Shown here in pieces: positions 3,642 through 21,833 of a stretch of DNA of 64,000 nt. The notes below the pieces were generated by a model that made no database searches, was not told the DNA's origin, and saw only the letters and a program-made list of their open reading frames with translations. The translations under genes and the position numbers were made by a program. The stretch comes from Pseudomonadota bacterium (GTDB lineage Bacteria > Myxococcota_A > Polyangia > GCA-2747355): the NCBI GenBank assembly GCA_016711215.1, contig JADJTL010000001.1, forward strand, positions 1,144,067-1,208,066, read 5' to 3'. Positions within the stretch are counted from its first letter, which is position 1; each line of letters starts with the position of its first letter.

Positions 3642-6600
3642 TCAGCCGAGCTTGGGGTTGGGGTTGCGCACGCGCGCGAGGTAGGTCGTGCGCGGCTTGA
3701 GATTCATGTCGCCCAGCACCGCGTAGTTGCGGTCGCGCTGCTTGAGCTGCGCGACGCGGCTCCGCGGGTCATTGAGATCGCCGAAGACGATCGCCTCGGT
3801 CGGGCAGACCTGCTGACAGGCCGGCACCACCGTGCCGTCGGCGATGGTATCGCTGCCCGCGGCCTTGGCCGCGAGGCGGGCGCCGTTGATGCGTTGCACG
3901 CAGTAGGTGCACTTCTCCATCACCCCGCGAAAGCGCACGGTGACGTCGGGGTTGCGCTGCATCGCCAGCAGCGCGTTCTGCCGGTCGTGCTCGGCCTGGT
4001 AGTTGAAGAAGTTGAAGCGCCGCACCTTATATGGGCAGTTGTTGGCACAGTAGCGTGTGCCGATGCAGCGGTTGTAGGCCATGTCGTTCAGCCCCTCGGG
4101 GCTATGCGCGGTGGCGCCGACCGGGCAGACGCTTTCGCAGGGCGCCGTCTCGCAATGCTGGCAGGCCATCGGCTGCGTGACGGGCAGGGCGTCGTCGCTC
4201 TCGCCGCTGAAATAGCGATCGAGGCGAATCCAATGCATCTCGCGGCCGTTGAGCACGCGCTCCTTGCCGACGACGGGGATCGTGTTCTCTGACTGGCAGG
4301 CGATCGTGCAGGCGTTGCAGCCGATGCAGCTGCTGAGGTCGATCGTCATGCCCCATTGCCGACCCGTCGTGGGGTTGGGCGGCTCCCAGAGCAGGGTCTT
4401 GACCTCGGCGTCGGGCAGGAGCTGCGCGGCGCGGGCGAAGTCAGGGTCGCGCTGGTACTGCGCCAGCGTTGCCTCCTGCACGATCGGGCGGCGCTGGCCG
4501 GTCAGGGGCTCGATCAGCGTGCCGTGGTCCTGCGTGCAGGCGAGCGCGTAGTGCCCGCGCAGGTGGCGCAGCCTGACGCCTTGGGCGAAGCGCGAGGCGT
4601 CGACGGTGCGCAGCGCGTTGGCGTTGAAGCCGCGGCCGTCGGCCACCGGGCCGCTATGCTGGCGACCATAGCCCAGCGCCAAGGCGACGCAGCTCTCTGC
4701 GACGCCCGGCGTGATCCAGACGGCGGCCTGCAGGCGGCGACCATCATGTTCGAGCTCGATCAGCTCCTCGGACTTGAGCCCGAGCCGGCGCGCCGTGGCT
4801 GCCCCGATCAACGCCGCGTTATCCCACGTCAGCTTGGTCACCGGATCGGGCAGCTCTTGCAGCCAGGCGTTGCCGGCGAAGCGGCCGTCGTAGAGCGTCG
4901 CGTCGAGCTGAAAGACCAACTCCAGGCGTTGGTCGGTGGGGGCCGGTCTATCGAGGGCGTCCTGCGGGCGCGCCGTCCGGGCGTCCCGATCGGCCGAGCC
5001 GCTCGAGCCCTCGAGCGTTGGTCGCGCTGCGGGCCTGCCGGCGAGCTGGGTCGCAAGCGCCTGCCACTCGTAGGTGGGGCTGAGCGCGGCGAGCTCAGCC
5101 GGGCGCTGCCCGTCATGGACCAGCGCGCGCCAGCGACGCTCGTGGCTGGCCTCATCGGCCCCGGCCGGCAGCAGGCCTGCATAGGCTGCGGTCGCCGGGC
5201 GGCGCAGCAGCGTGTAGCCATCGTGGAGCTTAGAGGCGATCAGGCGCGCAACGAGCTCGATCGGCGAGAGCGAGGCGAAGAGGGGCGCGATCAGCGGCTG
5301 CTGCACGCTGATCGTGCCGTCGGCGGCGCGGAGATCGCCCCAGGCCTCGAGGAAGTGGCTTTGGGGCACGACCCAGCGCGCCAGCGCCGCGGTCTCGTTG
5401 GCCGTGGGGCAGAGGTAGATCGTCGACGGGACGCGGCGCAGCAAGGTGCCGAACTCGAGATCGGCCGGCGCGTCATAGACCGGGTTTCCGCCGACGATGA
5501 CCAGCGATGAGACGGTCTCGGCCCGCAGCGCCGCGGCGAGGGCCTCGATCCCCTCGCAGTCCGCTGCCAGGTCGGGGTAGTAGCTGACCGTCTGGCCGAC
5601 GCTGCCGAGCAGCGCGTTGGTCAGCTGGCCGAGCGCATGGACCAGCGGCGGCTGCCCTTCGCCAACGATGATCAACGCCCGCCCGCGATGGGCGAGGAGG
5701 TCCTCGGCCAGCGCGCCAATCCAGCGCTGATGCGCGGCGCTCGGCGCGCGCGCCCGCAGGCGCGCCAGGAGCTGCTCGGCGCCGGCGGGCGCCGGCAGGG
5801 AAGGCGCGAGCTTGGCGACCAGGTCGGCGAGAAAGCCACCCACCTGCGAGGCCGCCAGGCGCAGGCGATTGTCGGCGTTCATCCCCGTGACGGTGAAGGC
5901 TGGCTCGACCACGTAGAGCCTGTTCATCCCGTCGCGCGGGCTGGTGAGGCGCCGTCGTTGGGCAAAGGCGCGGGCCTGGCGGACGACGTCGCCCTCGAGG
6001 CCGAGCGGATCGGCGTCGAGGGCTAGCACGACATCGGCGCGATCGAGCGCATAGCAGGGCCGAGCCCCCTTCAGCCCGACGAGTGCTGCGCCGGCCAGGC
6101 TCTGCCGTGGTTGGGCCGCGTCGTGGACGTAGAGGCGTGCGTGCGGGTAGCGAGCGCGAAGCTCGCCCAGCAGCGCGTGGAGCGTCGGCGAACGGAGGTC
6201 CTGCAGCAGCAGCGCCAGGCCGCGCCCCTGCTGCCGCTCGAGGCGCGCCGCGAGCCCGGCCAGCGCGGCATCGCGCTCGCGCGTGGAGACCGAGCGGTCG
6301 CCGAGGCGCGTGCGCCGCAGGCGCTGCGGGTCGTAGAGATCGAGCACGCTCGCCTGCAGGAAGGTGTCGGTGGCGCCGCGACTCATCGGATGGTCGGGGT
6401 GGCCCTCGATCTTGGTCGGGCGTCCGTCCTGGCTCTCGACGAGCAGGCCGACCACCCCCCCCGTGAGCTGGGCGGCGGTGGCGTAGTAGCGCGGCTGTCC
6501 AGGGACCAGATCCTCGGGCCGCTGGTTGAAGGGCAGGATCAGCTCGCGTGGCTTGCGCACGCAGCCGCTCAGCGTGGCGCCGGCGAGGGTTAGCGAGGCG

Positions 6601-6797
6601 CCCATCACCCCGAGGAAGTCGCGGCGCCCGACGTGGTCGAGGTCGAGCTGCGCGGCATTGGGCGGAAACTCGTCGCGCTGGGCAGCCTGCGCTGGATCGA
6701 TCGGCGCGCCCTCGGCATTGAGGCTGCGCCAATGACGCGGGGCGGTGGCGTTTCCCTCGGCGGTGGCAGCGGGGGCGTGCACTCTAGGCGTAGTCAT
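3642..6797 (-). CDS. actB: Alternative complex III subunit ActB (molybdopterin-oxidoreductase-like domain fused to 4Fe-4S ferredoxin domain)
   Basis: ORF track 1125 aa. Twin-arginine signal [17 protein letters not shown]; C-terminal Cys clusters ([38 protein letters not shown]). The tracked start at 7019 overlaps actA, so the start is placed at the internal Met (MTTPRV) abutting the actA stop. Confidence 0.85.
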
Positions 6798-7522
6798 CGG
6801 TGGCACCCCGAGCAGTGCAAGGGCGGCTCGAGCTGGCGCTTGCGCCGCGGATCGCGCGCGGCGACGTAGCCCGCGGCCGCCGGGTCGTAGCCGAGGTCGG
6901 TGACTTTGTCCAACGGACCCACCCGGCCCGCTGGGTTGCGGTGGCAGTCCAAGCACCAGCTCATGCTCAGCGGCTGGACCTGGCGCACGACCGTCATCTG
7001 GTCGACGCGGCCGTGACACTGCACGCAGCCGACGCCCGCGGCCACGTGGACGCGGTGATCGAAGAAGGCGTAGTCGGGCAGCAGGTGAACGCGCACCCAG
7101 GGGAGCGGCAGCCCGCTGGCATGGGCGATGCGCAGGGGCGCGAGCTTGACGGTCTCGGGCAAGATCAGCTTCTCGTGACAGCCCATGCAGGTCTGCGTCG
7201 GGGGCACGGCGGCGACCGGCGCCCGCTCGACGGTGCTGTGGCAGTAGCGGCAGTCGAAGCCGAGCTCGCCCGCGTGGAGCTTATGGCTGAAGGGGACGGG
7301 CTGGATCGGCTCGTAGCCGACGTCGGTAAACGAGGGAGAAAACCAGTACCAGATCGCGCCGACGACCGTCGCCAAGACCACGGGCAAGGCCAGGCCGAGG
7401 TAGAGCGGAAGACGATTGGTCCAGCGCGGGAAGAGCGGGGTCACGGCTTGTCGACGCTCCCTCGGTAGCAGTAGTCGCCGGCAGTCGCCCCAGCGGCTTC
7501 GATCCCGGGCGACCTCGAGCAC
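6794..7522 (-). CDS. actA: Alternative complex III subunit ActA, pentaheme cytochrome c
   Basis: ORF track 242 aa; five CxxCH motifs (CRYCH, CMGCH, CVQCH, CLDCH, CSGCH); N-terminal membrane anchor. Confidence 0.85.
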   Translation of the reverse strand: MLEVARDRSRWGDCRRLLLPRERRQAVTPLFPRWTNRLPLYLGLALPVVLATVVGAIWYWFSPSFTDVGYEPIQPVPFSHKLHAGELGFDCRYCHSTVERAPVAAVPPTQTCMGCHEKLILPETVKLAPLRIAHASGLPLPWVRVHLLPDYAFFDHRVHVAAGVGCVQCHGRVDQMTVVRQVQPLSMSWCLDCHRNPAGRVGPLDKVTDLGYDPAAAGYVAARDPRRKRQLEPPLHCSGCHR

Positions 7523-7885: not shown

Positions 7886-9007
7886 ATGATTATTGTGATG
7901 CGCCCCGAATGCGGGCCTGAATCCCCCGAAGTGGCCGAGGTCGTGCGCCTGGCGCGGACCTTCCCCGACGTGCAACCAGAGGTACGGCAAATCCAGGGCG
8001 CCACGCGCTCGCTGACGGAGGTCTACCTGATCGGATCGACTGGCCAACTGCCGCTCGATCGCTTCGCCGACAGCCTGGGCGTCGAGCGCGCGATCCGCGT
8101 GCGAGAGAAATATCGTGCGATTGGCCGCCACGAGGGGCAGGTCGAGGCGCTGGGCTTCGAGTACAACGGGCTCCGCTTCGGCGATGATAGCTTCCATGTC
8201 TTCGCCGGGCTCTGCGCGGTCGACACCCGTGAGAACGTCGAGCAGATGTTCCGCGCGCTGAAGCAGCTCGGGCTGCAGACGACGCGTGCCGGGGCCTACA
8301 AGCCGCGCACCAGCCCCTACGATTTCCAGGGGCATGGCCGCGCCTGTCTGCCCTACGTCTTCGAGCTGGCCGGCAAGTACGACATCAAGTGCGTGGCGAT
8401 GGAGATCACCCACGAGACGCAGCTCGACGAGATCCGCGAGGCCCTCGAGCGCGCCGGGCAGCCGACGGGTGTGCTGATTCAAATCGGCACGCGCAACGCG
8501 CAGAACTTCGAGCTGCTGAAGCACGTTGGGCAGCAGCAGGACTTTCCCGTGCTCTTCAAGCGCGGGATGGGCATCACGCTGGCCGAGTCGCTGAATGCCT
8601 GTGAATACATCGCCAGCGGCGGCAACCATCGAATCATCTTCTGCCTGCGCGGGATGAAGACGAACCTCGGCGATCCGCACCGAAACCTCGTCGACTTCGC
8701 GCATGTGCCGGTGGTCAAGCGCCTGACGCGCTTGCCGGTCTGTATCGACCCGTCGCATTCGGTCGGCCAGCGCCTGGTGGCGTTGGACGGCTTGCTCGAC
8801 ATGCATCACGCGGCAGCGCAGGGCATCGTCGCCGGCGCGAACATGGTGCTGGTCGACTTCCATCCGACGCCAAAAGAGGCGCTCTGCGACGGCCCGCAGG
8901 CCCTCTTGCTCAAGGAGCTCGAGCACTTCGTCGCCGACACCCAGCTCGTGCGCAAGGCCTACCTCGACCGGATAGCCCTCGGTCGGCGCCTGCTCCAAGA
9001 GCGCTAG
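7886..9007 (+). CDS. aroF: 3-deoxy-7-phosphoheptulonate (DAHP) synthase, KDO8P-synthase-like type I-beta with N-terminal ferredoxin-like regulatory domain
   Basis: ORF track 373 aa; motifs GTRNAQNFELLK, KRGMG, CIDPSHS; length matches Thermotoga/Bacillus-type DAHPS. Confidence 0.85.
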   Translation: MIIVMRPECGPESPEVAEVVRLARTFPDVQPEVRQIQGATRSLTEVYLIGSTGQLPLDRFADSLGVERAIRVREKYRAIGRHEGQVEALGFEYNGLRFGDDSFHVFAGLCAVDTRENVEQMFRALKQLGLQTTRAGAYKPRTSPYDFQGHGRACLPYVFELAGKYDIKCVAMEITHETQLDEIREALERAGQPTGVLIQIGTRNAQNFELLKHVGQQQDFPVLFKRGMGITLAESLNACEYIASGGNHRIIFCLRGMKTNLGDPHRNLVDFAHVPVVKRLTRLPVCIDPSHSVGQRLVALDGLLDMHHAAAQGIVAGANMVLVDFHPTPKEALCDGPQALLLKELEHFVADTQLVRKAYLDRIALGRRLLQER

Positions 9008-9025
9008 ACACTCGTTCGCCGCTGC

Positions 9026-9039
9026 GGCCCCGCGGGGCC
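9026..9039 (+). terminator. GC-rich palindrome (GGCCCCGCGGGGCC) immediately after the DAHP synthase stop; possible terminator hairpin
   Basis: Perfect 14-bp palindrome seen in sequence; no U-tract, which is common in high-GC genomes. Confidence 0.3.
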
Positions 9040-9046
9040 CGCCCTG

Positions 9047-9095
9047 CGCACGCCACGCACGCCACGCACGCCACGCACGCCACGCACGCCACCTT
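9047..9095. repeat. Tandem repeat, 9-bp unit CGCCACGCA, about 4.5 copies
   Basis: Direct reading: cgcacgccacgcacgccacgcacgccacgcacgccacgcacgccacc; intergenic. Confidence 0.85.
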
Positions 9096-9337
9096 TGGCG
9101 GGCCCGGCGTGCGCCCCTGTGCCCGAGCCGCCAGCTCAGCGCGAAGGCCAATTGCGAGCCACGGGTATCTGGGGTTGAATGGCCCCGCTTTCGAACGAGC
9201 GATCTCGGGAGCTTGCGGTCTCATGTCCCCAGGTAGCGCTTCGCGATTACTGCAACCATCCGGAAGGACAATGGTCATGCCATGGCACGAGAGCTGCTTC
9301 TAATGCTTCTCGGCAGCGTTCCTAGGAGGGGCAAGCG

Positions 9338-10540
9338 ATGACGAATCAAGACGCTCGACCAGATGCTCGACCAGATGCTCGACCAGATGCTCCACGCGAC
9401 GGCCGAGGCGTTGGCGTGCAGGCGCTGAGAGCCAGGCGGTGGGTCGCAATGCTCGGCCTTTGCGCACTGCAACTTGGCTGCGCGGGCAGCGTCGACTCGG
9501 GTGCTGCGGGGGGCGATGCCCTGGGCACCGGTGGGTCGATCTACGACGTCACCAACACCGCCGGGGCCGTCGGGTCGACCGCCAGCGAGAGCGCTATTTC
9601 GAGCGGCACGAAGCTCTTCGTCATCGCCGACGGGGCACGGGTCAACGTGACGGTGGCCGGCAGCAGCACCCCGGTGATCTGGGGCAAGCTGTCGACGGGC
9701 GACGTGCTCGGCTTCGGCTATCTCGACAAGGCCTATCGCTATGAGCACGGCGGCACGGCCACGGAGCTGCTGCCCAGCGGTTCTGCGGGCGGGATGGTGA
9801 CGAGCTCGATGGTCGCGCCGGGCGCGGAGATCGGGCTGCCCAGCCTCAACCTCACGGGGACGACCCAACCCTACGTGCTGATCGTGCGGGGACCGGAGGC
9901 CAGCGGTGCCTACGGTTATATACTTTCGCCCTGCGGCGACGCTGCCTGCTCCAACGGCCCGACGGATGCCACCGTGCGGACCGCGGTGGCCAATCAACCG
10001 GTCAACGTCGGGGGTGATTACACGCTCGAGTTCCGCCCGGTCGAGCTGAACGGCGTTGCGAAGACGCTCTTCTCGCTGCGGAGGACGACGGCCGTCGCCA
10101 CCAGCGCGAGCACCAGCGCGAGCACCAGCGCGACCACCGCGGCGACCAGCAGCGTGGCCCCGGCCGCTCCCACCCCGCCACCCCCGCCGCCCACGGCCCC
10201 CACGGCCCCCACCGCGCCGGCAAAGGCCGCCGACGACGGCTGGTCGATGACCGATTGGCTGCTGCTCGGTGGCGCCGCGGTGGGCGGGTACGTCCTGTGG
10301 ATGAAGAAATGCGACTGGTTCGATATCGCCTGCAACGGCGCACAGACGAACGCTGCCGGCGGCGGTCCCAACTGGGGTGGTAATGATCCTAGCCTTCTGA
10401 ACGGGACGGTGGGAGGCAACACAGCCGCCTTTCCTTATGGCTATCAGTCCGCGACGGGAGCTGGCTGCTACGTCGATGCGAATGGACAGGTGCGGCTCAG
10501 ATCGACGCACCTTCTCGGCGACACTTGGAGCTGCTACTAG
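9338..10540 (+). CDS. Hypothetical membrane-anchored lipoprotein with N-terminal DARP repeats, Thr/Ser/Pro-rich linker, TM helix and Cys-containing C-terminal domain
   Basis: ORF track 400 aa; AGGAGG 7 nt upstream of the ATG; lipobox LQLGC; TSASTSASTSATT...PTPPPPPPTAPTAPTAP linker; hydrophobic WLLLGGAAVGGYVLWM; no recognisable catalytic motif. Confidence 0.6.
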   Translation: MTNQDARPDARPDARPDAPRDGRGVGVQALRARRWVAMLGLCALQLGCAGSVDSGAAGGDALGTGGSIYDVTNTAGAVGSTASESAISSGTKLFVIADGARVNVTVAGSSTPVIWGKLSTGDVLGFGYLDKAYRYEHGGTATELLPSGSAGGMVTSSMVAPGAEIGLPSLNLTGTTQPYVLIVRGPEASGAYGYILSPCGDAACSNGPTDATVRTAVANQPVNVGGDYTLEFRPVELNGVAKTLFSLRRTTAVATSASTSASTSATTAATSSVAPAAPTPPPPPPTAPTAPTAPAKAADDGWSMTDWLLLGGAAVGGYVLWMKKCDWFDIACNGAQTNAAGGGPNWGGNDPSLLNGTVGGNTAAFPYGYQSATGAGCYVDANGQVRLRSTHLLGDTWSCY

Positions 10541-10654
10541 CGAGGCATGCTCACGGTTGTTGCCCCCCACAGGCCACGCCCTCGTCCACCCCAATCTGCT
10601 CAGCCGGCCCAGCTCAGTATCCGCGGCGCCCAGCGTCCACCGCAGGGCGCCGAA

Positions 10655-11869
10655 TCAGCCGCAGCCGCCACTCTTCTTGCCCTTCGGTCGCAGCTTCACC
10701 GTGGGCGTGTAGGGTAGCTTCGGCGCATGCTCGGGGTCGAGCGCGGCCGCCGGATGGCGATCGCCGAGGGCGGCCGCGAAGCGCCAATGCAGCCGGTCGT
10801 CGCCGGCGACGGCGGTCGTGATCGGCTCGACGCCGGTCGATCCCGCTCCATAGGTCGCGATCCAGCGGTTGAGGCCGCCGGCGAGGACGTAGACATTGGG
10901 CACACCGAGCAGCGCCAGGTGGCGCCAGGCGGCCGTGGCGGACGTCTCGTCATTCGAGATCAGGATCACGACGCTGGGATCCGGTAGGCTGATCAGCCTC
11001 CGCCGCTGGCTCGGCAACGCCGCGATCGAGACGCGCTCGGCGTTGGCGAGGTGAAAGCGGTTCCAGTCGCTCTCGGGCCGCAAGTCGAGCGTCACGAGCT
11101 TCAGATCGCGGTCGCCCTGCAGGGCCAGCAGCTCGGCCGGCACGATGAAGACCTCGCGGCGCGCGAGCTGGGGCTGGTACTTGGCGCCCAGTCGCTCCCA
11201 CTTGGCGTCGAGTGAGGGCTGGCCGAGCGCTGCGACGGCGCCCACGCCGCCGAGGAGCAGCGCCGTGCCGGCCATCGCCTTGGGCCAGTGGACGGGCCGC
11301 TCGTGACCGAGCCGTCGCGCCACGAATTTCAGGCCGCCGAAGAAGGCGAGGGCCAGCAGAGCGACCAGCCCCACCGCGGTGGCCGTCGAAACGCCGAAGA
11401 GGTCGGTGAGTTGGAGTGGACCGAAGTGGCCGGCGTAGTAGAACGCGCGGAAGTAATCGGCCGTCTCGCCGAAGGCGAACATGCCGAGCAAGCTGCCGAG
11501 CACGAAGAAGAACCCGTCGATCTTACCGGTAGCCAACGAGGCCAGCGACGTTCCCGGGCAGTAGCCGCCGATCGCGAAGCCGACGCCAAAGATCAGCCCG
11601 CCGAGGGCTACCGAGGGGACGTAGGTCGGATTGACCCAGAGCTGGTCGAGGTCGAGCCAGCGCAGGCCCGAGCTGAGATAGAGCAAGAGCATCGCCGTGA
11701 CGATCGCCGTGAACATCGCCTGCACGACGCGCAGCTCGCGGAAGTAGAACTGCGCCGCGAGTCGCCGCGCGTCGCCGAAGCCGGTGGACTCGAGCACGAA
11801 GCCGAAGGCCAGCCCGATCAGCACCTCGACCAGATGGGCCGACCAGCCGCCCAACGCGAAGGGGCCCAT
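10655..11869 (-). CDS. YeeE/YedE-family sulfur-compound transporter half (TsuA-like) fused to a C-terminal rhodanese-like domain
   Basis: ORF track 404 aa; conserved GGYCPG motif in a polytopic membrane domain; C-terminal ~130 aa with rhodanese-like strand/loop (VVILISNDETSATAAW) where the usual catalytic Cys position is N/D. Confidence 0.7.
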   Translation of the reverse strand: MGPFALGGWSAHLVEVLIGLAFGFVLESTGFGDARRLAAQFYFRELRVVQAMFTAIVTAMLLLYLSSGLRWLDLDQLWVNPTYVPSVALGGLIFGVGFAIGGYCPGTSLASLATGKIDGFFFVLGSLLGMFAFGETADYFRAFYYAGHFGPLQLTDLFGVSTATAVGLVALLALAFFGGLKFVARRLGHERPVHWPKAMAGTALLLGGVGAVAALGQPSLDAKWERLGAKYQPQLARREVFIVPAELLALQGDRDLKLVTLDLRPESDWNRFHLANAERVSIAALPSQRRRLISLPDPSVVILISNDETSATAAWRHLALLGVPNVYVLAGGLNRWIATYGAGSTGVEPITTAVAGDDRLHWRFAAALGDRHPAAALDPEHAPKLPYTPTVKLRPKGKKSGGCG

Positions 11870-11872
11870 GGC

Positions 11873-12415
11873 TTAGCCTTCCTCGCGGCCGGGGGTCCAT
11901 AGTCGCCGCACGAAGAAGGCGCAGCCGTAGGCCCCGGCAAAGCAGGCGAAGAGGAAGATCCACGAACCCACGGCGAGCGTCGCTCCGCCGCTGAGGCCCT
12001 GCCCCGAGGTGCAGCCACGCGCCAGCCGGGCGGCATAGCCCACCAGCGCGCCCCCGACGAGGGCGGCGATCCAGCGCACGCGCGCTGTGATCCGCGGACC
12101 GTGGAAGGTCTCGAGGCGCACGCGCCGGCGGAGCAGGCCAGAGGTCAGGCCGCCGAGCAGCACGCCACCGATCGACCAGACGATCCAGTGATCGAGAGGC
12201 CCGCCGGCGCCGCGCATGAACTCGGCCACGGCCGGGGTGCGGGCCACATGGCGCGGGGCGACGCGCTGCTCGGCCGCGGCCACGAGGCGCGCCGTGCCGC
12301 CCGAGCTGCCCAGCCCGTGGCCCGTGACGAAGAACGCCGCAAAGAGCACCAGTCCGAGCATCAGCCCGCCGAAATAGGGATTCCAATAGCGTGGGTTTTC
12401 GCCCGGCATCGTCAC
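11873..12415 (-). CDS. YeeE/YedE-family sulfur-compound transporter half (first repeat)
   Basis: ORF track 180 aa; membrane protein with ARGCTSGQG motif; separated from the partner half by one codon. Confidence 0.7.
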   Translation of the reverse strand: MTMPGENPRYWNPYFGGLMLGLVLFAAFFVTGHGLGSSGGTARLVAAAEQRVAPRHVARTPAVAEFMRGAGGPLDHWIVWSIGGVLLGGLTSGLLRRRVRLETFHGPRITARVRWIAALVGGALVGYAARLARGCTSGQGLSGGATLAVGSWIFLFACFAGAYGCAFFVRRLWTPGREEG

Positions 12416-15400
12416 TCCTTCGGCTTCGGTCGCAATGGGCCGCGTTGGGCGGCGGTGGCCAGCGGTCGCGCCGGCCGATAGGCTAGCGCGCCGTCGCTGC
12501 CGCGCTCGAGCGCGCCGTCGAGGGCGACCGTCTCGGCGCTGGCAGCGGCGGCCAACGTCGGCCTCAGGCCACCGGGCAGATAGGGGGCGACGACGAAGGA
12601 TCGCCGCGCCGCCTCTGAGCTCGGGTGGCAGCGCGCGCAGGCCCGGCTCGCTGCCGCCCCGAGCCCCACGCCGTGGTAAATCGGGTAGGGGCGCAGCTCA
12701 CCCTGGATGACGGCGCCGGCCGCGCCGAGGGCCGCGATCCCTTTGGCGACCAGCGCCACCTTGGCGGCGGTGTCGAGTCGTAGCTCCCTGTCGGTGACGC
12801 GGCCATCGTGGTTACTGTCGAGCGCGGCGATGATCTCGGCGCGATAGCCGTCACGGTCGCGGAAGACCCGCTGCACGAGCGCGGGTGGCACCGGCCGCTT
12901 ACCGACGATCCAGCGATAACTGGCCACGAGGTTCGCGGGCGTCAGCCGCGTGATCCCGTCGCCACCGCGCGCGCGCACGAGCGCTGGTTCGTAGCCCGCG
13001 AGGTAGAGCGTCGCCGGATCGACGACCTCGCCAGCGGCGGGGTCAGCGGCGGCGCTAGCGATGCCGCGGTAGAGCAGGCGAGGGGAGCCGTCCGGGCGCA
13101 CGACGGTGGCGTCGACGAGCGATCGCGCGGGGAGCGCGAGGCGTGGCACGTGGCAGGCCTCGCAGGCGACCTTGGCGAAGTGCTGCTGCTGGGCCGGCAG
13201 CCAGGGGTGCAAACCCTCCAGGCTGTGGCAGCTCTGACAGCGGCGTCGCTCGCCGGGCTTGGCTGCCCGCGCCTTGGCGATCGCGCCGCCGAGCTGCGCG
13301 GGCCGTCGGCCGCTGTAGTGGCAGGCACCGCAGCTCACCAGCCGCTGGGCGTGGATATCCCAGGGCTGCCCCTGCTGGTCTTTTTGCATCAGGTTCAACG
13401 CCGAGCGGCGTATCGCCTGCCAGGAGAACACCTGGCCGGTCGTTTCCGTCACCCACTGCGTGCCGTCGAGGACGACGTTCAGCGGCGCGCTGCCGTTATC
13501 GACCAGGCCATGGCAGGCGCCGCAGCTCGCTTCGCCCGTCCGCCCGAGCTTTAGCTCTACCGCGCCCTCGGCGTCGAAGGCCGCGGGACGCCAGCGCCAG
13601 CGTTGCGCGGCCGCCTCCTCGATCAGCGCGGCGGGCAGCGTGGCGCCGATCGACCACTCCGGCTGATCGCTGGCCAGGGCGCGCCCTCGCGCCGCGTGAT
13701 CGGCGGCCTCGAGATGACAGAGGAAGCAGTTGGTTTCTTCGCCCGTGGCGGGGGGCAGGCGGGGCCCCCAGCGCAAGAGCTCGCTGCGTGGCTGCGGCAA
13801 GGCCTCCAGCGCGAGCCCTGCGTGCAGGCGGTGGGTCGCCACGAAGCTCGCGTCCGCCAGCTCATGGCAGCCGCCGCAGGTCTGGGCGGTAGAGAGCGGC
13901 GCGGCGCTCTCAAATACCGATTGTCCGACGCGGTCCTTGAGCGTGATTCGCGGATGCTCCACGGCCTCGCGCGCGAGCGGGTCACGCGGATAGCCCAGGG
14001 CCCGCCAATCGAGGCGTCCGCGCTCGCCGTGACAGTCGCGGCAGGTCAGGGCCGCTTCCTTCCGTTGCACCATATGCGAGAGCGGCCAGAACATCTCCGT
14101 CGCCGCGAAGCCGTAGCGTCCGCTGTAGGGCAGCCCCGTGGCTTTCGCCCCCTCACGCGCCGCGAGGTCCCAGTCGAACTTGGTCCAGTAGCCCTTCGGC
14201 CCGCTGGTATTGGGCAGCAGCAGGTGGCGATGGTCTTGGTCGTAGAGCTGCTTGCCCAGATGGCGCTTGAAGGGCCAGAGCTTGGCGCTGGGATCGTGGC
14301 GGTCGCCGAGCGGTGAGGTGATCGCGGTCACGCCGCCGGGGTCGATCTTGTCGCCCAGCAGGTAGCGCGTCGAGCGCCCGTTGTACCAGCGGTACTCGGG
14401 GAGGGCGCCCTTGGCCCAGGTGAAGCGGCCCTTGATCTTGAGATAAGCGTGTGGGTCCGTGCTCGGGAGATCCTTTCCGGCCTCGGACCAATCCCAGCTC
14501 AGCTTCGTGCCCTCGGTCACGGACATCGACGGGATGTGGCAGGCCTGGCAGGCGACCCGGGCGGTGTGTCGGTTGAGCTGGCTATCGTGATGAGGCTGCG
14601 CCGCGTGGCAGTCGCCGCAGCTGACCTGGTGGGCGCTCTCGACGCTGACCGACATCGCGCGTCCGCGCAGCCGATGGTTCTGGGTGCGGTGGCAGTCGAC
14701 GCACTGCAACTCCAAGCGACCCATATGCACATCGACCCCTTCGCTGGGAAAGAGCAGGCTGCGGTCCATGTCGCCGTGCTTGACCGCGTCGCCGCCGCCG
14801 CCCATGAAGTGGCAGGCACCGCAGTTGGCGCGTCGCGGCCGGCCCACCGAGCGCGCCACCGCCAGCAGATCGACGCTCGGATCGGGCAAGCCGGCGCCCT
14901 TTGCCTGCTTGCTGTAGGTGCCGCTCTGGTCGTGACAGACGAGGCAATCGACCAGGCTCGGGTTGTTGAAGTCGAAGTCCGGTCCGTTCCAGCCGAAGCC
15001 GGCATGGCAGCTCGTGCAGGCGCCCCAGTTGGAGCTGATGCCGATGCAGAAGTTGTTGATCGCGTTCTTCTTGCCGATGCGATGCAGGCCCCGATGCCCG
15101 GGAACCGAGACCGGGTCGCCCTGCCAGGTCCAGTGCACCGTGCTCATCAGCTCGCGCGCCGCCCTCGGGTGGCACTCGAGGCAGGCGCGCGTCACCGCCG
15201 GCCCGTCCCGAAAGGGCGTGTCGAAAAACGTGCTGTGACTGACGGGCGGCGGCCGCAGCGGCAGTTGTGCGAGCCCAAGGCCAGCGGTTGGGTTGCGCTC
15301 GCAGCCGGCGGCGTAGCAGACGAAGCAGGCGGCGCCGACCACGAGCGCGCCCGCGCGAAAGGAACGCGGGCGGCCATCGCGTCGCGCGAGCTCGCCGCGC

Positions 15401-15441
15401 CGAGTACGGGTGCTCTTCACGATCAGCCCATGCGGGTCCAC
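12412..15441 (-). CDS. Large multiheme c-type cytochrome (about 15 CxxCH motifs), signal peptide or lipoprotein
   Basis: ORF track 1009 aa; CxxCH motifs counted by eye: CLECH, CTSCH, CLVCH, CGACH, CVDCH, CGDCH, CQACH, CRDCH, CGGCH, CFLCH, CGACH, CGACH, CQSCH, CEACH, CARCH; N-terminal hydrophobic ALVVGAACFVCYAAGC; 4-bp overlap with the downstream YedE-like gene. Confidence 0.8.
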   Translation of the reverse strand: MDPHGLIVKSTRTRRGELARRDGRPRSFRAGALVVGAACFVCYAAGCERNPTAGLGLAQLPLRPPPVSHSTFFDTPFRDGPAVTRACLECHPRAARELMSTVHWTWQGDPVSVPGHRGLHRIGKKNAINNFCIGISSNWGACTSCHAGFGWNGPDFDFNNPSLVDCLVCHDQSGTYSKQAKGAGLPDPSVDLLAVARSVGRPRRANCGACHFMGGGGDAVKHGDMDRSLLFPSEGVDVHMGRLELQCVDCHRTQNHRLRGRAMSVSVESAHQVSCGDCHAAQPHHDSQLNRHTARVACQACHIPSMSVTEGTKLSWDWSEAGKDLPSTDPHAYLKIKGRFTWAKGALPEYRWYNGRSTRYLLGDKIDPGGVTAITSPLGDRHDPSAKLWPFKRHLGKQLYDQDHRHLLLPNTSGPKGYWTKFDWDLAAREGAKATGLPYSGRYGFAATEMFWPLSHMVQRKEAALTCRDCHGERGRLDWRALGYPRDPLAREAVEHPRITLKDRVGQSVFESAAPLSTAQTCGGCHELADASFVATHRLHAGLALEALPQPRSELLRWGPRLPPATGEETNCFLCHLEAADHAARGRALASDQPEWSIGATLPAALIEEAAAQRWRWRPAAFDAEGAVELKLGRTGEASCGACHGLVDNGSAPLNVVLDGTQWVTETTGQVFSWQAIRRSALNLMQKDQQGQPWDIHAQRLVSCGACHYSGRRPAQLGGAIAKARAAKPGERRRCQSCHSLEGLHPWLPAQQQHFAKVACEACHVPRLALPARSLVDATVVRPDGSPRLLYRGIASAAADPAAGEVVDPATLYLAGYEPALVRARGGDGITRLTPANLVASYRWIVGKRPVPPALVQRVFRDRDGYRAEIIAALDSNHDGRVTDRELRLDTAAKVALVAKGIAALGAAGAVIQGELRPYPIYHGVGLGAAASRACARCHPSSEAARRSFVVAPYLPGGLRPTLAAAASAETVALDGALERGSDGALAYRPARPLATAAQRGPLRPKPKE

Positions 15442-19583: not shown

Positions 19584-21833
19584 GTGGAACTCGTCGTCAC
19601 CGGCCCCATCAAGCTCGAAGCCGTGCTCGCAGCCGAGCTGCGCGCCTTCGGCGCGAGCAGCGTCCGCGAGCTCGAGGGCGCAGTGGCGGCGACGGGTGGG
19701 CTCGAGCTGGCCTACCGCGCCTGTCTCTGGTCACGCGTGGCCAGCCGCGTGCTCGTGCCCGTGGCGCGCTATCGCGCCGAGAACGCCGAGGCGATCTATC
19801 AGGGCGCGCGGCGGGTGCCGTGGGTCGAGCACCTCTCGGTCGACGCCACGCTCGCGCTCGATGTCGACGGCAATACCGCCACGAACGTCGATAACACGCG
19901 CTTCGCGATGCTGCGGGTCAAGGACGCGATCGTCGACGAGCTGCGCCAGCGCACGGGGCGACGTCCGACGATCGATGCGCGCGACGCTGCCCTGCGGGTT
20001 CACGTCTACCTGCGCGGCGACGAGGTCCAGCTCGGCATCGACCTGGCGGGGCGAGGGCTGCACCGGCGCGGCTATCGGGAGTCCGTCGCTGCACCGCTGA
20101 AGGAGAACGTCGCTGCGGCGCTCTTGCTCTTGGCCGAGTGGCCGGCGCTGGCAGCCGAGGGCGGCTGGCTGGTCGATCCGATGACGGGGTCGGCGACGCT
20201 GCCGATCGAGGCGGCGCTGATGGCCTGCGATGTGGCACCGGGGCTGCTCAGTCAGCCGCGGGGCTTCCTCGCCTGGCGTGGCCACGACCCTGCCCTCTGG
20301 CAGCGCCTGCAGCGCGAAGCGCGGGGGCGCGACCTGCGCGAGCGCCTGCGCGGCGATGGACGCGGGCGGCGTTGGAGATTGACGGGCCTCGACCGCGATC
20401 CCGGCGCGCTGCGCGCCGCACGCCGCGCTGTCGAGAGCGCTGGCCTGCAGCAGCTGGTGCACCTCGAGCGACGGGGGGTCGATGAACTCGCGACCTGGCC
20501 GGCAGGGGAGGCGAGCGGTCGCGCGACGCTGCTGGTCTGCAACCCGCCCTATGGGGAGCGACTGGGTGAGGCGGCGGCGCTCAAGGGACTCTACCTGGCC
20601 TTCAGTCGGCTCTTGCACCAACGCTTCTCCGGCGCCACCGCCTGGGTCCTGAGCAGTGATGCCAAGCTCACACGCTGCCTCGGGCTGAAGGCGACGCGCA
20701 GCCAACCGGTGAGCAACGGCGGAATTGCCTGCCGTTGGCTGTGCTACCCGATCGCCCGGTCGCCTGCGCCTGCCGCGACACTCGCGCCCTCGGCGCTGTC
20801 CGCGCCAGCGGAGACGCCGACGCCCGCCGACGCGCCTGCGCCGCGCGCCCTGGGGGAAGCGGGCGGACCGACCTTGCTGCGCCTGGCGCATAGCGCCCAG
20901 GCGGAGGCCTTCGCCAACCGCTTGCGCAAGATGGCACGCCACTGGCGGCGCTGGGCGAAGCGCAGCGGGGTGCAATGCTATCGCGTCTACGACGCCGACA
21001 TCCCCGAGTATGCAGCGGTCATCGACGTCTACGAGCAGTGGGTGCATCTGCAGGAGTACGCACCGCCGGCGACGGTCTCGCCGGAGCGAGCCGAGGAGCG
21101 GCTGCACGACATGGCGCTGCTGACGGCGGAGGTGCTGCAAGTCGGCGCCCAGGATCTCTTCGTCAAGGTGCGGGAGCGCCAGCGTGGGGGCGGTCAGTAC
21201 ACGCGACTGGCGCGCAGTGGAGCGTTCCACGTCGTGCGCGAGGGCGGCCACAGATTCTGGGTCAACCTGGCCGATCGGCTCGACACGGGGCTCTTCCTCG
21301 ATCAGCGGCAGGTGCGCGCGTTGGTTGCGCAGGAGAGCGCCGGCAAGCGCGTGCTCAACGCCTTCTGCTACACGGCGGCGACGACGGTCTATGCGGCCAA
21401 GGGCGGCGCAGTGGAGTCCGTGTCGGTCGACCTCTCAGCGACCTATCTCGATTGGGCCCGACGCAACTTCGTGCTCAATGGCGTCGACGAGGGGCGGCAT
21501 CGCCTCGAGCGCGCTGACTGTCGCGAGTGGCTGGCACACGATCGTCAGCGCTACGATCTGATCTACCTCGACCCACCGACCTTCTCGCGCTCGAAACGGA
21601 TGAGCGGGGATTTCGATGTTCAGCGCGACCAGCTGCCGCTGATCGCCGCGGCGCGTGCCCGGCTGGCGCCGGGTGACGTGCTGATCTTCGCGACCAACGC
21701 GCGTCGCTTCCGCCTGGAACCCGAGGCCGTCGCCGGCGCCGATTGTCGCGAGCTCACGGCCGCCACGCTGCCGCCTGACTTCGCGCGCAGCCCGCGACTG
21801 CGCCAGGTGTGGCGCATCGGACCGGCCCGCTGA
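19584..21833 (+). CDS. rlmL: Bifunctional 23S rRNA (guanine2445-N2/guanine2069-N7) methyltransferase RlmKL (THUMP + two methyltransferase domains)
   Basis: ORF track 749 aa; LLVCNPPYGERLG motif; C-terminal second MTase domain (YLDPPTFSRSKRM). Confidence 0.8.
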   Translation: MELVVTGPIKLEAVLAAELRAFGASSVRELEGAVAATGGLELAYRACLWSRVASRVLVPVARYRAENAEAIYQGARRVPWVEHLSVDATLALDVDGNTATNVDNTRFAMLRVKDAIVDELRQRTGRRPTIDARDAALRVHVYLRGDEVQLGIDLAGRGLHRRGYRESVAAPLKENVAAALLLLAEWPALAAEGGWLVDPMTGSATLPIEAALMACDVAPGLLSQPRGFLAWRGHDPALWQRLQREARGRDLRERLRGDGRGRRWRLTGLDRDPGALRAARRAVESAGLQQLVHLERRGVDELATWPAGEASGRATLLVCNPPYGERLGEAAALKGLYLAFSRLLHQRFSGATAWVLSSDAKLTRCLGLKATRSQPVSNGGIACRWLCYPIARSPAPAATLAPSALSAPAETPTPADAPAPRALGEAGGPTLLRLAHSAQAEAFANRLRKMARHWRRWAKRSGVQCYRVYDADIPEYAAVIDVYEQWVHLQEYAPPATVSPERAEERLHDMALLTAEVLQVGAQDLFVKVRERQRGGGQYTRLARSGAFHVVREGGHRFWVNLADRLDTGLFLDQRQVRALVAQESAGKRVLNAFCYTAATTVYAAKGGAVESVSVDLSATYLDWARRNFVLNGVDEGRHRLERADCREWLAHDRQRYDLIYLDPPTFSRSKRMSGDFDVQRDQLPLIAAARARLAPGDVLIFATNARRFRLEPEAVAGADCRELTAATLPPDFARSPRLRQVWRIGPAR

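Follow-up and report, generated by a model that had tools for sequence, protein, structure and literature searches.

A very small envelope lipoprotein family with a conserved sigma-54-type promoter motif in uncultured bacteria

The DNA analysed here is a stretch of 64,000 nucleotides (the window, at its full length) from contig JADJTL010000001.1 of assembly GCA_016711215.1, and it carries on its forward strand, at 9338-10540 with the stop codon included, an open reading frame (ORF) that encodes a precursor of 400 residues according to the ORF list. This gene belongs to a very small and previously undescribed family of envelope lipoproteins, in which the order of parts is common to all full-length members and a sigma-54-type promoter motif precedes the gene at every locus. 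We hold with moderate confidence a working model in which the product is an envelope lipoprotein precursor of this family, expressed from a sigma-54 promoter and held in place by a lipid anchor and by a second, helical anchor, with a topology like that of SctJ/MxiJ. A preliminary description of the locus, made from the letters of the DNA, had listed the main landmarks of the gene, and all of them are present in the sequence, with small corrections that are given below. Taken by itself the finding is modest, one more uncharacterised envelope lipoprotein of an uncultured bacterium; what it adds is a very rare family whose beta domain has no match among known sequence families and no convincing one among solved folds.

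Family membership and conserved layout

The ORF is genuine and not a product of chance, since its beta domain, the best-conserved part of the protein, is 73-76% identical across three orthologues. In the public annotation (MBK8480421.1) the product has 363 residues and starts at Met38 (9449). An antisense ORF at 9275-10594 was rejected as a typical high-GC shadow ORF without support. An exhaustive hmmsearch over 1.84 billion protein cluster representatives, with a profile built from two sequences, brought the family to nine proteins in all, the relatives comprising six of full length (345-390 residues, 22-30% identical) and two fragments. Among the relatives, P0006 (IPL40_13890) is a paralogue in the same metagenome-assembled genome (MAG) as the window gene, and P0005, one of the fragments, covers the 5' half of the gene at locus L004, the syntenic orthologue. 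A word-index search yielded P0002 (locus L001), a 57% identical protein on a 1.5-kb ENA contig; such searches returned the protein itself plus one or two relatives only, low-complexity words dominating them. Among the GTDB representative genomes a single MAG, JADJDT01 (GCA_016702545.1), carries a family gene, and no member was found in the JGI metagenomes. Neither the window protein nor any of the nine members gave anything above noise in scans against Pfam, NCBIfam and PADLOC, and PDB sequence searches with two profiles gave no match. Its known members come solely from a few uncultured lineages that are high in GC and delta-proteobacteria-like.

Every full-length member begins with a signal peptide ending in a lipobox, followed by a low-complexity tether and a beta-rich domain, and continues with a low-complexity stalk that closes with an acidic run and a Trp, a Gly-rich apolar stretch of 15-20 residues and a tail of 39-90 residues. 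This conservation bears out the layout that had been proposed at the outset for a lipoprotein-type precursor, with a domain, a linker, a hydrophobic helix and a Cys-rich tail. The preliminary description had also proposed that orthologues lacking both the repeats at the gene start and the C-terminal domain would betray a gene-fusion artefact. The relatives do lack the repeats (8/8), yet the layout, C-terminal part included, is kept in every full-length one of them, and we therefore reject a fusion artefact. In the window, the parts of the gene are as follows.

9338-10540, plus strand: coding sequence, identical from Met38 on to NCBI MBK8480421.1; its orthologues are 57-58% identical
9338-9478, plus strand: signal peptide, residues 1-47, with a long n-region ending in RARR and then the h-region WVAMLGLCALQLG, recognised from hydropathy, the AlphaFold2 (AF2) model and conservation
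9479-9481, plus strand: Cys48, at the end of the lipobox-like LQLGC and an invariant column; as the predicted first residue of the mature protein it would carry the lipid
9482-9601, plus strand: disordered Gly/Ala/Ser/Thr tether, residues 49-88 (predicted local distance difference test score, pLDDT, below 50 for residues 46-87)
9602-10087, plus strand: all-beta ectodomain of the AF2 model, residues 89-250, with a conserved C199-x4-C204 and no convincing fold match
10088-10237, plus strand: Thr/Ser/Ala-rich and then Pro-rich stalk, residues 251-300, ending in an acidic ADD patch, recognised from tandem repeats and conservation
10247-10303, plus strand: hydrophobic Gly-rich helix flanked by Trp, residues 304-322, with the core W307-M322 and a GGxxxGG motif, conserved in full-length members
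10304-10537, plus strand: hypervariable C-terminal tail, residues 323-400, with four Cys (C325, C332, C377 and C399), delimited by identity and Cys counts

The N-terminus is what is expected of a lipoprotein precursor, a charged n-region (RARR) preceding an h-region that is the only stretch with a Kyte-Doolittle (KD) hydropathy above 1.2 in a 19-residue window. AF2 places a helix at residues 26-47, and the pattern RW...LG.CA...GCAGS is kept in the orthologues. The LQLGC noted earlier as a lipobox is present, is lipobox-like and ends at Cys48, which is the only invariant column in the nine-sequence family alignment (A3). Its Gln at position -3 is non-canonical with respect to [LVI][ASTVI][GAS]C and is shared with the syntenic orthologue (VQAGC), the other seven members having canonical lipoboxes (LVGC, ISAC, ATAC, AVGC, MTAC, VAAC and LVAC). 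We infer that Cys48 is lipid-modified, after which the 47-residue signal peptide would be cut off at the lipobox.

What had been described as a Gly/Thr-rich domain of about 200 residues is really two parts, a disordered tether of about 40 residues (49-88) and an all-beta domain of about 160 (89-250). The tether is 46-50% identical among the orthologues, and residue +2 is Ala or Gly across the family. An AF2 model built with two sequences was useless (pLDDT 32); in the one built with nine, residues ~89-250 are all-beta with a pLDDT of ~90 and the remainder is of low confidence. The motifs VxWAxL...D..FGY, AxIGLP, PHVLI and Y.FS.C-x4-C..GP mark this domain in the family. In the 400-residue protein Cys is found at positions 42, 48, 199, 204, 325, 332, 377 and 399, and a disulfide within the C-x4-C would stabilise the domain, which in the mature protein would follow the flexible tether as the conserved, periplasmic and presumably ligand- or partner-binding part. 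Foldseek gave no match at E <= 0.001 against the PDB and BFVD; the best PDB match, with E = 0.027 and a TM-score below 0.2, is a weak lead only. The Thr/Ser/Pro linker of the preliminary description is also there (residues 251-300), with in-frame repeats of 12 bp at 10098-10154 and of 9 bp at 10173-10212 according to Tandem Repeats Finder (TRF), and a linker of low complexity with an acidic run at its end is present in every relative.

Promoter, start codon and DARP repeat

The upstream elements and those of the translation start are, in order of position:

9169-9174, plus strand: CTGGGG, a distal candidate for an activator half-site, about -113 relative to the -24 element; it is the CCCCAG of the proximal element in reverse complement
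9223-9233, plus strand: ATGTCCCCAGG, the proximal one of the conserved upstream elements and a candidate site for an enhancer-binding protein, recognised from the position of its CCCCA
9283-9298, plus strand: sigma-54-type promoter with the -24/-12 elements TGGCACgagagCTGCT / TGGCACGAGAGCTGCT (TGGCAC-N5-CTGCT), recognised from the motif count and family conservation
9324-9329, plus strand: Shine-Dalgarno sequence AGGAGG, 8 nt before ATG 9338, aligning with GGAG (L001) and GAGGAGG (L004) at the same position
9350-9385, plus strand: (DARP)x3, encoded by a 12-bp repeat in frame, within the signal-peptide n-region (TRF array 9349-9392)

The leader had been read as a comparatively AT-rich context of a strong ribosome-binding site. 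Its composition is as claimed (GC 0.57-0.61 in the 150 nt before the ATG against 0.70 in the window), but rather than a mere ribosome-binding context it appears, from its motif, to be a conserved sigma-54-type promoter. Where 0.12 matches to the sigma-54 pattern would be expected in the 64-kb window there are two, and the second, at 20233-20248, is probably due to chance because it sits inside a long ORF (19584-21833). At each of the nine family loci the coding strand carries a relaxed form, TGG[CT]A[CT]-N5-NTGC[AT], 32-99 nt upstream of the annotated start; only two other matches occur on both strands of 100.7 kb, and shuffled upstream regions matched it in 0-0.25% of trials (<=0.0025 per region). 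The GG and GC elements are exactly 10 nt apart, and the motif is 55-66 nt from the start codon in the six clearest loci. No gap interrupts the DNA alignment of the three orthologues between the motif and the ATG, a distance of 55 nt in each, and the Shine-Dalgarno sequence and the ATG are aligned as well.

Two further elements accompany the promoter. In six of the nine loci, the distant L005 and L007 included, CCCCA is found 54-57 nt upstream of the TGGCA motif, usually in the context (A/G)TGTCCCCA, and TGGGG occurs at -112 to -116 in the window, L001, L002 and L006, against a background density of TGGGG/CCCCA of 0.27 per 170 nt. We regard both as candidate activator sites, a role that suits their positions at about -80 and -137 from the expected transcription start. 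A sigma-54 promoter at 9283-9298 would need an enhancer-binding activator for transcription, and this activator probably binds the CCCCA/TGGGG elements some 55 and 113 bp further upstream. Promoter and upstream element have persisted even as the protein sequences drifted apart to 22-30% identity, suggesting a tight, signal-dependent control of the family, and the conserved promoter is an experimental handle for finding the activator and the inducing signal. Two negative results weigh against this picture of regulation: the 64-kb window encodes no activator with a GAFTGA motif, and there is no conserved neighbouring gene between the family loci. A simple scan for sigma-70 promoters and terminators found none. 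Rfam gave no match over 8900-10700, and hence no riboswitch or known leader RNA there.

Two other loci bear on the promoter. L003 has a second sigma-54-type motif, TGGCACGTCGCCTGCT (6975, minus strand), 58 nt upstream of a further lipoprotein gene (5868-6917), which adjoins the family member and encodes a very Cys-rich protein of 349 residues without a Pfam match; this second motif suggests that several envelope lipoproteins share sigma-54 control in such organisms. At L006 (526-594) the motif starts only 32 nt before the called ATG, and translation probably begins 36 nt further on, at the next in-frame Met (MKTQF...).

The AGGAGG reported before the window ATG is present, with a spacer of 8 nt (9324-9329 to ATG 9338) and not of 7 nt as first stated. 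The three in-frame 12-bp DARP repeats at the gene start are confirmed both by TRF (period 12, 3.7 copies, 96% matches, 9349-9392) and by translation, the N-terminus reading MTNQ-(DARP)3-DAPRD. They are missing from all eight relatives, including two orthologues and the paralogue of the same genome. Their codons are rare (GCT 0.04, CGA 0.10, CCA 0.11), and the insertion is charge-neutral, each unit bringing an Asp and an Arg. The ungapped 55 nt between promoter and ATG in the three orthologues point to ATG 9338 as the ancestral start, from which translation would proceed behind the strong AGGAGG, and to the DARP repeat as a lineage-specific in-frame insertion just after codon 4. Being in the n-region, the repeat would leave with the signal peptide and not be part of the mature protein, on which this conspicuous feature would have no bearing. 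Exact look-ups of the 363-residue and 400-residue products, made for the repeat copy number in other assemblies, found no record.

It is unlikely, in our view, that translation starts instead at GTG 9416 (or at the ATG 9449 of the NCBI annotation), downstream of the repeats, which would then be a DARP-coding 5' untranslated leader. The points that speak for this, and against our own choice, are the GC content at third codon positions (GC3), which is 0.40 in the first 30 codons against ~0.85-0.9 in the body, the many rare codons there, and a GAGG 7 nt upstream of the GTG, from which a textbook lipoprotein signal peptide of 21 residues would result; the NCBI annotation, for its part, begins at Met38. 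GTG 9416 may also serve as an additional start. The low GC3 and rare codons of the repeat fit a young expansion or a leader alike, and low GC3 is also what a recently expanded repeat and an unstructured initiation region would give. Indeed, in folding stability the region 9310-9460 ranks below 198 of 200 shuffles (z = +2.1), a weakness of 5' mRNA structure that is expected around an initiation site. The case for 9338 is made by the gap-free alignment of its ATG, Shine-Dalgarno sequence and sigma-54 motif with the start of the orthologues, and by the AGGAGG near it, which is the strongest ribosome-binding site. Moreover, the insertion is in frame, so that ribosomes initiating at 9338 would read straight into the ORF. 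The Met38 start is very probably wrong: it leaves MLGLCALQLG before the Cys, that is, a non-functional signal peptide of 10 residues with no charged n-region, and it cuts off the conserved RW. Comparison with the orthologues places the start at 9338, and the database start codon is corrected accordingly.

Helix, tail and topology

Beyond the signal peptide, each member has a single uncharged stretch of 15-20 residues, namely the helix, which has Trp or Tyr at its flanks. Across the family, its Wimley-White (WW) octanol energy for a 19-mer is -0.6 to -6.1 kcal/mol and its KD hydropathy over 19 residues 0.86-1.97; AF2 gives a helix at 304-327 with low pLDDT. The TM helix of the preliminary description is to this extent real, a conserved hydrophobic segment (W307-M322), while its membrane-spanning nature is uncertain, the segment being weakly hydrophobic and the positive-inside rule only weakly followed. 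The Trp/Tyr flanks and small-xxx-small pairs fit a membrane helix that packs against its own copies, and this Gly-zipper-like helix, behind the Ser/Thr- and Pro-rich stalk with its acidic end, would act as the second membrane anchor and probably drive oligomerisation. The flank before the helix has a net charge of -1 to -8 and is more acidic than the C-terminal side in 7/9 members, so that in these the positive-inside rule is satisfied weakly, through a charge difference; KK follows the helix in the window protein and L001.

The tail evolves fast, with 24-32% identity among the orthologues against 73-76% in the beta domain. GC3 is ~0.65 in the last 70 codons against ~0.9 in the body (0.68 and 0.89 when the tail itself is compared with the body), and it is lower in the tail than in the body in all nine family genes. 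The several Cys and the lower GC3 that had been attributed to a C-terminal domain of about 90 residues are thus found in a part of 78 residues, four being the number of Cys.

We rank first, with middling confidence, a topology in which the lipid anchor and the beta domain would be periplasmic, the helix would be a stop-transfer anchor in the inner membrane and the short tail, usually with four Cys, would lie in the cytoplasm, as in the layout of SctJ/MxiJ. It is supported by the precedent of MxiJ, whose palmitoylation site (Cys18) and C-terminal TM helix both anchor it to the inner membrane (PMC7058355). Several properties of the family weigh against it. The helix is marginally hydrophobic, with a KD of 1.16 in the window protein and an un-weighted sum on the Hessa central scale of +1.1 to +5.4, positive in 9/9 members. 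The 15 residues after the helix have a net charge of only -3 to +1, and whole tails of -9 to 0, contrary to the positive-inside rule. Finally, the Cys counts of the tails (4, 4, 2, 4, 4, 0, 4, 4 and 4) are even in all nine members and exactly four in seven, with no CxxC spacing. Even Cys counts are characteristic of exported, disulfide-bonded proteins (PMC7678975), which argues for an extracytoplasmic tail; a cytoplasmic four-Cys metal site is the alternative to disulfides. The weak Gly-rich helix and the even-Cys, acidic, hypervariable tail pose a testable question, that of a cytoplasmic metal site or an exported disulfide knot.

The reading that we rank second, possible but tentative, answers this question with the disulfide knot. 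The mature protein would be fully exported as an outer-membrane lipoprotein and its Gly-rich segment would be no inner-membrane stop-transfer sequence; the helix would oligomerise in or across the outer membrane, and a tail with two disulfides, periplasmic or on the surface, would be hypervariable by diversifying selection. The even Cys counts in variable, non-CxxC spacing, with the known bias of exported proteins, are its main support, and it agrees as well with the acidic, Lys/Arg-poor tail, with the marginal hydrophobicity of a helix rich in small-xxx-small motifs and with the contrast in identity between tail and beta domain. The Ala or Gly at +2 is in its favour, as is the disordered tether of ~40 residues after the lipid Cys, a feature reported for about half of the E. 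coli outer-membrane lipoproteins (bioRxiv 10.1101/2021.01.05.425367). Glycine-zipper helices are themselves known in outer-membrane lipoproteins (bioRxiv 10.64898/2025.12.22.696046). Against these points, no Pfam glycine-zipper, SlyB/Pcp or Wza match was found in the nine members at E <= 0.1, and the order of parts differs from that of SlyB, in which a helical hairpin comes directly after the lipid anchor. The segments of L005, L002 and L008 are hydrophobic enough for ordinary inner-membrane anchors, spanning of the outer membrane by alpha helices is rare, and the four Cys could equally make a metal site.

In its most specific form, the exported protein would be anchored in the outer membrane, and an oligomer of its weakly hydrophobic glycine-zipper helix would cross that membrane and show the two-disulfide hypervariable tail on the surface. 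We consider this quite unlikely; if true, such an oligomer would be a new class of alpha-helical outer-membrane-spanning lipoprotein. As a variant, the protein could be a tether anchored in both membranes, given that its two long linkers together could span the periplasm. In both forms a dedicated sigma-54 activator circuit would have it made on demand.

The divergence of the tail invites another explanation, namely that it is a polymorphic effector or recognition module, as in SitA, CdiA-CT or Rhs-CT, carried on a conserved lipoprotein delivery scaffold and swapped between strains. Just past the helix identity does fall sharply (73-76% to 24-32%), and from that very point the tail of the syntenic orthologue (L004) is unrelated; both GC and GC3 of the tail are lower than in the body in 9/9 genes. 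We nevertheless find it very unlikely. The 114 nt between the lipoprotein stop codon and the convergent YeeE/rhodanese gene leave no room for an immunity gene, no tail has a toxin, PADLOC or Pfam match, and the tails, of 39-90 residues, are alike in composition (rich in Gly, Ser, Thr, Tyr, Trp and Asp), one of them being without Cys; relaxed constraint is the simpler explanation. Hardly credible, lastly, is a beta domain related to domain I of the class II membrane-fusion proteins (fusexins), with ectodomain, stalk, TM helix and Cys-rich tail serving membrane fusion or exchange: the overall type I layout is alike, but Foldseek found nothing in the PDB or among viral models, a domain of ~160 residues offers no equivalents of domains II and III or of the fusion loop, no three-domain fusexin ectodomain with significant structural similarity was recovered, and the matches are mutually homologous and therefore a single observation, of a kind that small beta sandwiches often reach in score.

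Neighbouring genes and comparison with known systems

The gene is flanked by respiratory and sulfur-related genes on the minus strand (3642-7522 and 10655-15441), with an alternative-complex-III-like Fe-S/molybdopterin subunit and a cytochrome c7-like protein on one side, and two YeeE/YedE sulfur-transport proteins (one fused to a rhodanese) and a multihaem cytochrome of 1009 residues on the other; no link of function between them and the lipoprotein is apparent. An operon with the neighbouring DAHP synthase gene, whose stop codon is at 9007, was rejected: the spacer is 330 nt long, the lipoprotein gene has its own promoter, and the lipoprotein gene is missing at the corresponding position in a relative whose DAHP synthase is 83% identical. 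Inside this spacer, at 9047-9092, is a perfect 9-bp tandem repeat (CGCACGCCA x5.1, 100% matches), which is non-coding on the plus strand. The closest named relatives of the DAHP synthase, at 73-75% identity, come from MAGs of Myxococcota, 'Deltaproteobacteria' and Candidatus Binatia, which makes the host a high-GC diderm from roughly this group of lineages.

In the MAG GCA_016702545.1 the syntenic orthologue (L004) follows the same alternative-complex-III and DAHP-synthase genes. It is annotated there as two genes, of 101 and 286 residues, and the split (L004 8295-8306, JADJDT010000018.1) comes down to one missing G, CCCCGG having become CCCCG; repair in silico gives 387 residues, and the deletion is probably a long-read assembly error rather than the sign of a pseudogene. 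A lineage-specific intergenic repeat flanks the family genes in three loci (L001 48-160, L002 ~470-510 and L004 9160-9310). It is made up of several copies of GAGTCCC(C/T)... and then CCGGGGTTCGTTT, and may be a small repetitive extragenic palindromic (REP)-like or miniature inverted-repeat transposable element (MITE)-like element; GGGTTCGTTT is not present in the 64-kb window.

When compared with known systems, the gene fits the generic classes of lipoprotein precursor and sigma-54 promoter, and membership failed for SctJ, glycine-zipper lipoproteins, C-terminal sorting signals, polymorphic toxins and class II fusogens. With RpoN promoters it shares the TGGCAC-N5-(T/C)TGCW context and the conserved short elements ~55 and 113 bp further upstream. 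It differs from them in that its -12 element reads CTGCT and not TTGCA, no activator gene is linked to it and the upstream elements match no nameable regulator site.

The MYXO-CTERM, PEP-CTERM and GlyGly-CTERM signals likewise place a low-complexity linker, a short motif and a hydrophobic helix in the C-terminal region of exported proteins. They close these, however, with a basic cluster within ~30 residues, whereas this family continues for 39-90 mostly acidic residues. A C-terminal sorting signal was rejected on this account, the tail being too long and no NCBIfam sorting-signal model being matched. In lipoproteins of the Wza type a C-terminal alpha helix crosses the membrane as an oligomer. 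The window helix is, in contrast, uniformly apolar and Gly-rich rather than amphipathic, with no Poly_export or SLBB match in the protein and no polysaccharide-export genes near the gene.

Among lipoproteins with glycine-zipper helices, these are paired with a beta-rich soluble domain. This group (SlyB/Pcp, YfgH, OsmB and YiaD) shares with our family the lipid anchor and Gly-rich membrane helices of the GxxxG type, and its lipoproteins oligomerise; the outer-membrane lipoproteins SlyB and YfgH carry glycine-zipper membrane helices (bioRxiv 10.64898/2025.12.22.696046). The two-TM glycine-zipper lipoproteins differ in that none of the nine members has a corresponding Pfam match at E <= 0.1, and in that the window protein has, instead of a two-helix hairpin, a single helix (304-322) after the beta domain and the long stalk, followed by a tail of 39-90 residues in the family.

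The closest parallel is that of SctJ/YscJ/PrgK/MxiJ/EscJ, which combine a lipidated N-terminal Cys, one or more periplasmic domains, a single C-terminal TM helix and a short tail. The differences from this family are clear: neither the window protein nor any relative matches PF01514 (YscJ_FliF), the window domain is predicted to be all-beta and not the alpha/beta ring-building motif, and SctJ is without the long low-complexity linkers and the Cys-rich hypervariable tail. Nor are there secretion-system genes nearby, no type III or flagellar cluster being found around the window gene or at the other loci, which have unrelated neighbours. The layout that the preliminary description had called unusual for a lipoprotein is indeed uncommon, but it has precedents in MxiJ/SctJ and SlyB/YfgH, and for a doubly anchored protein SctJ/MxiJ is the best of them.

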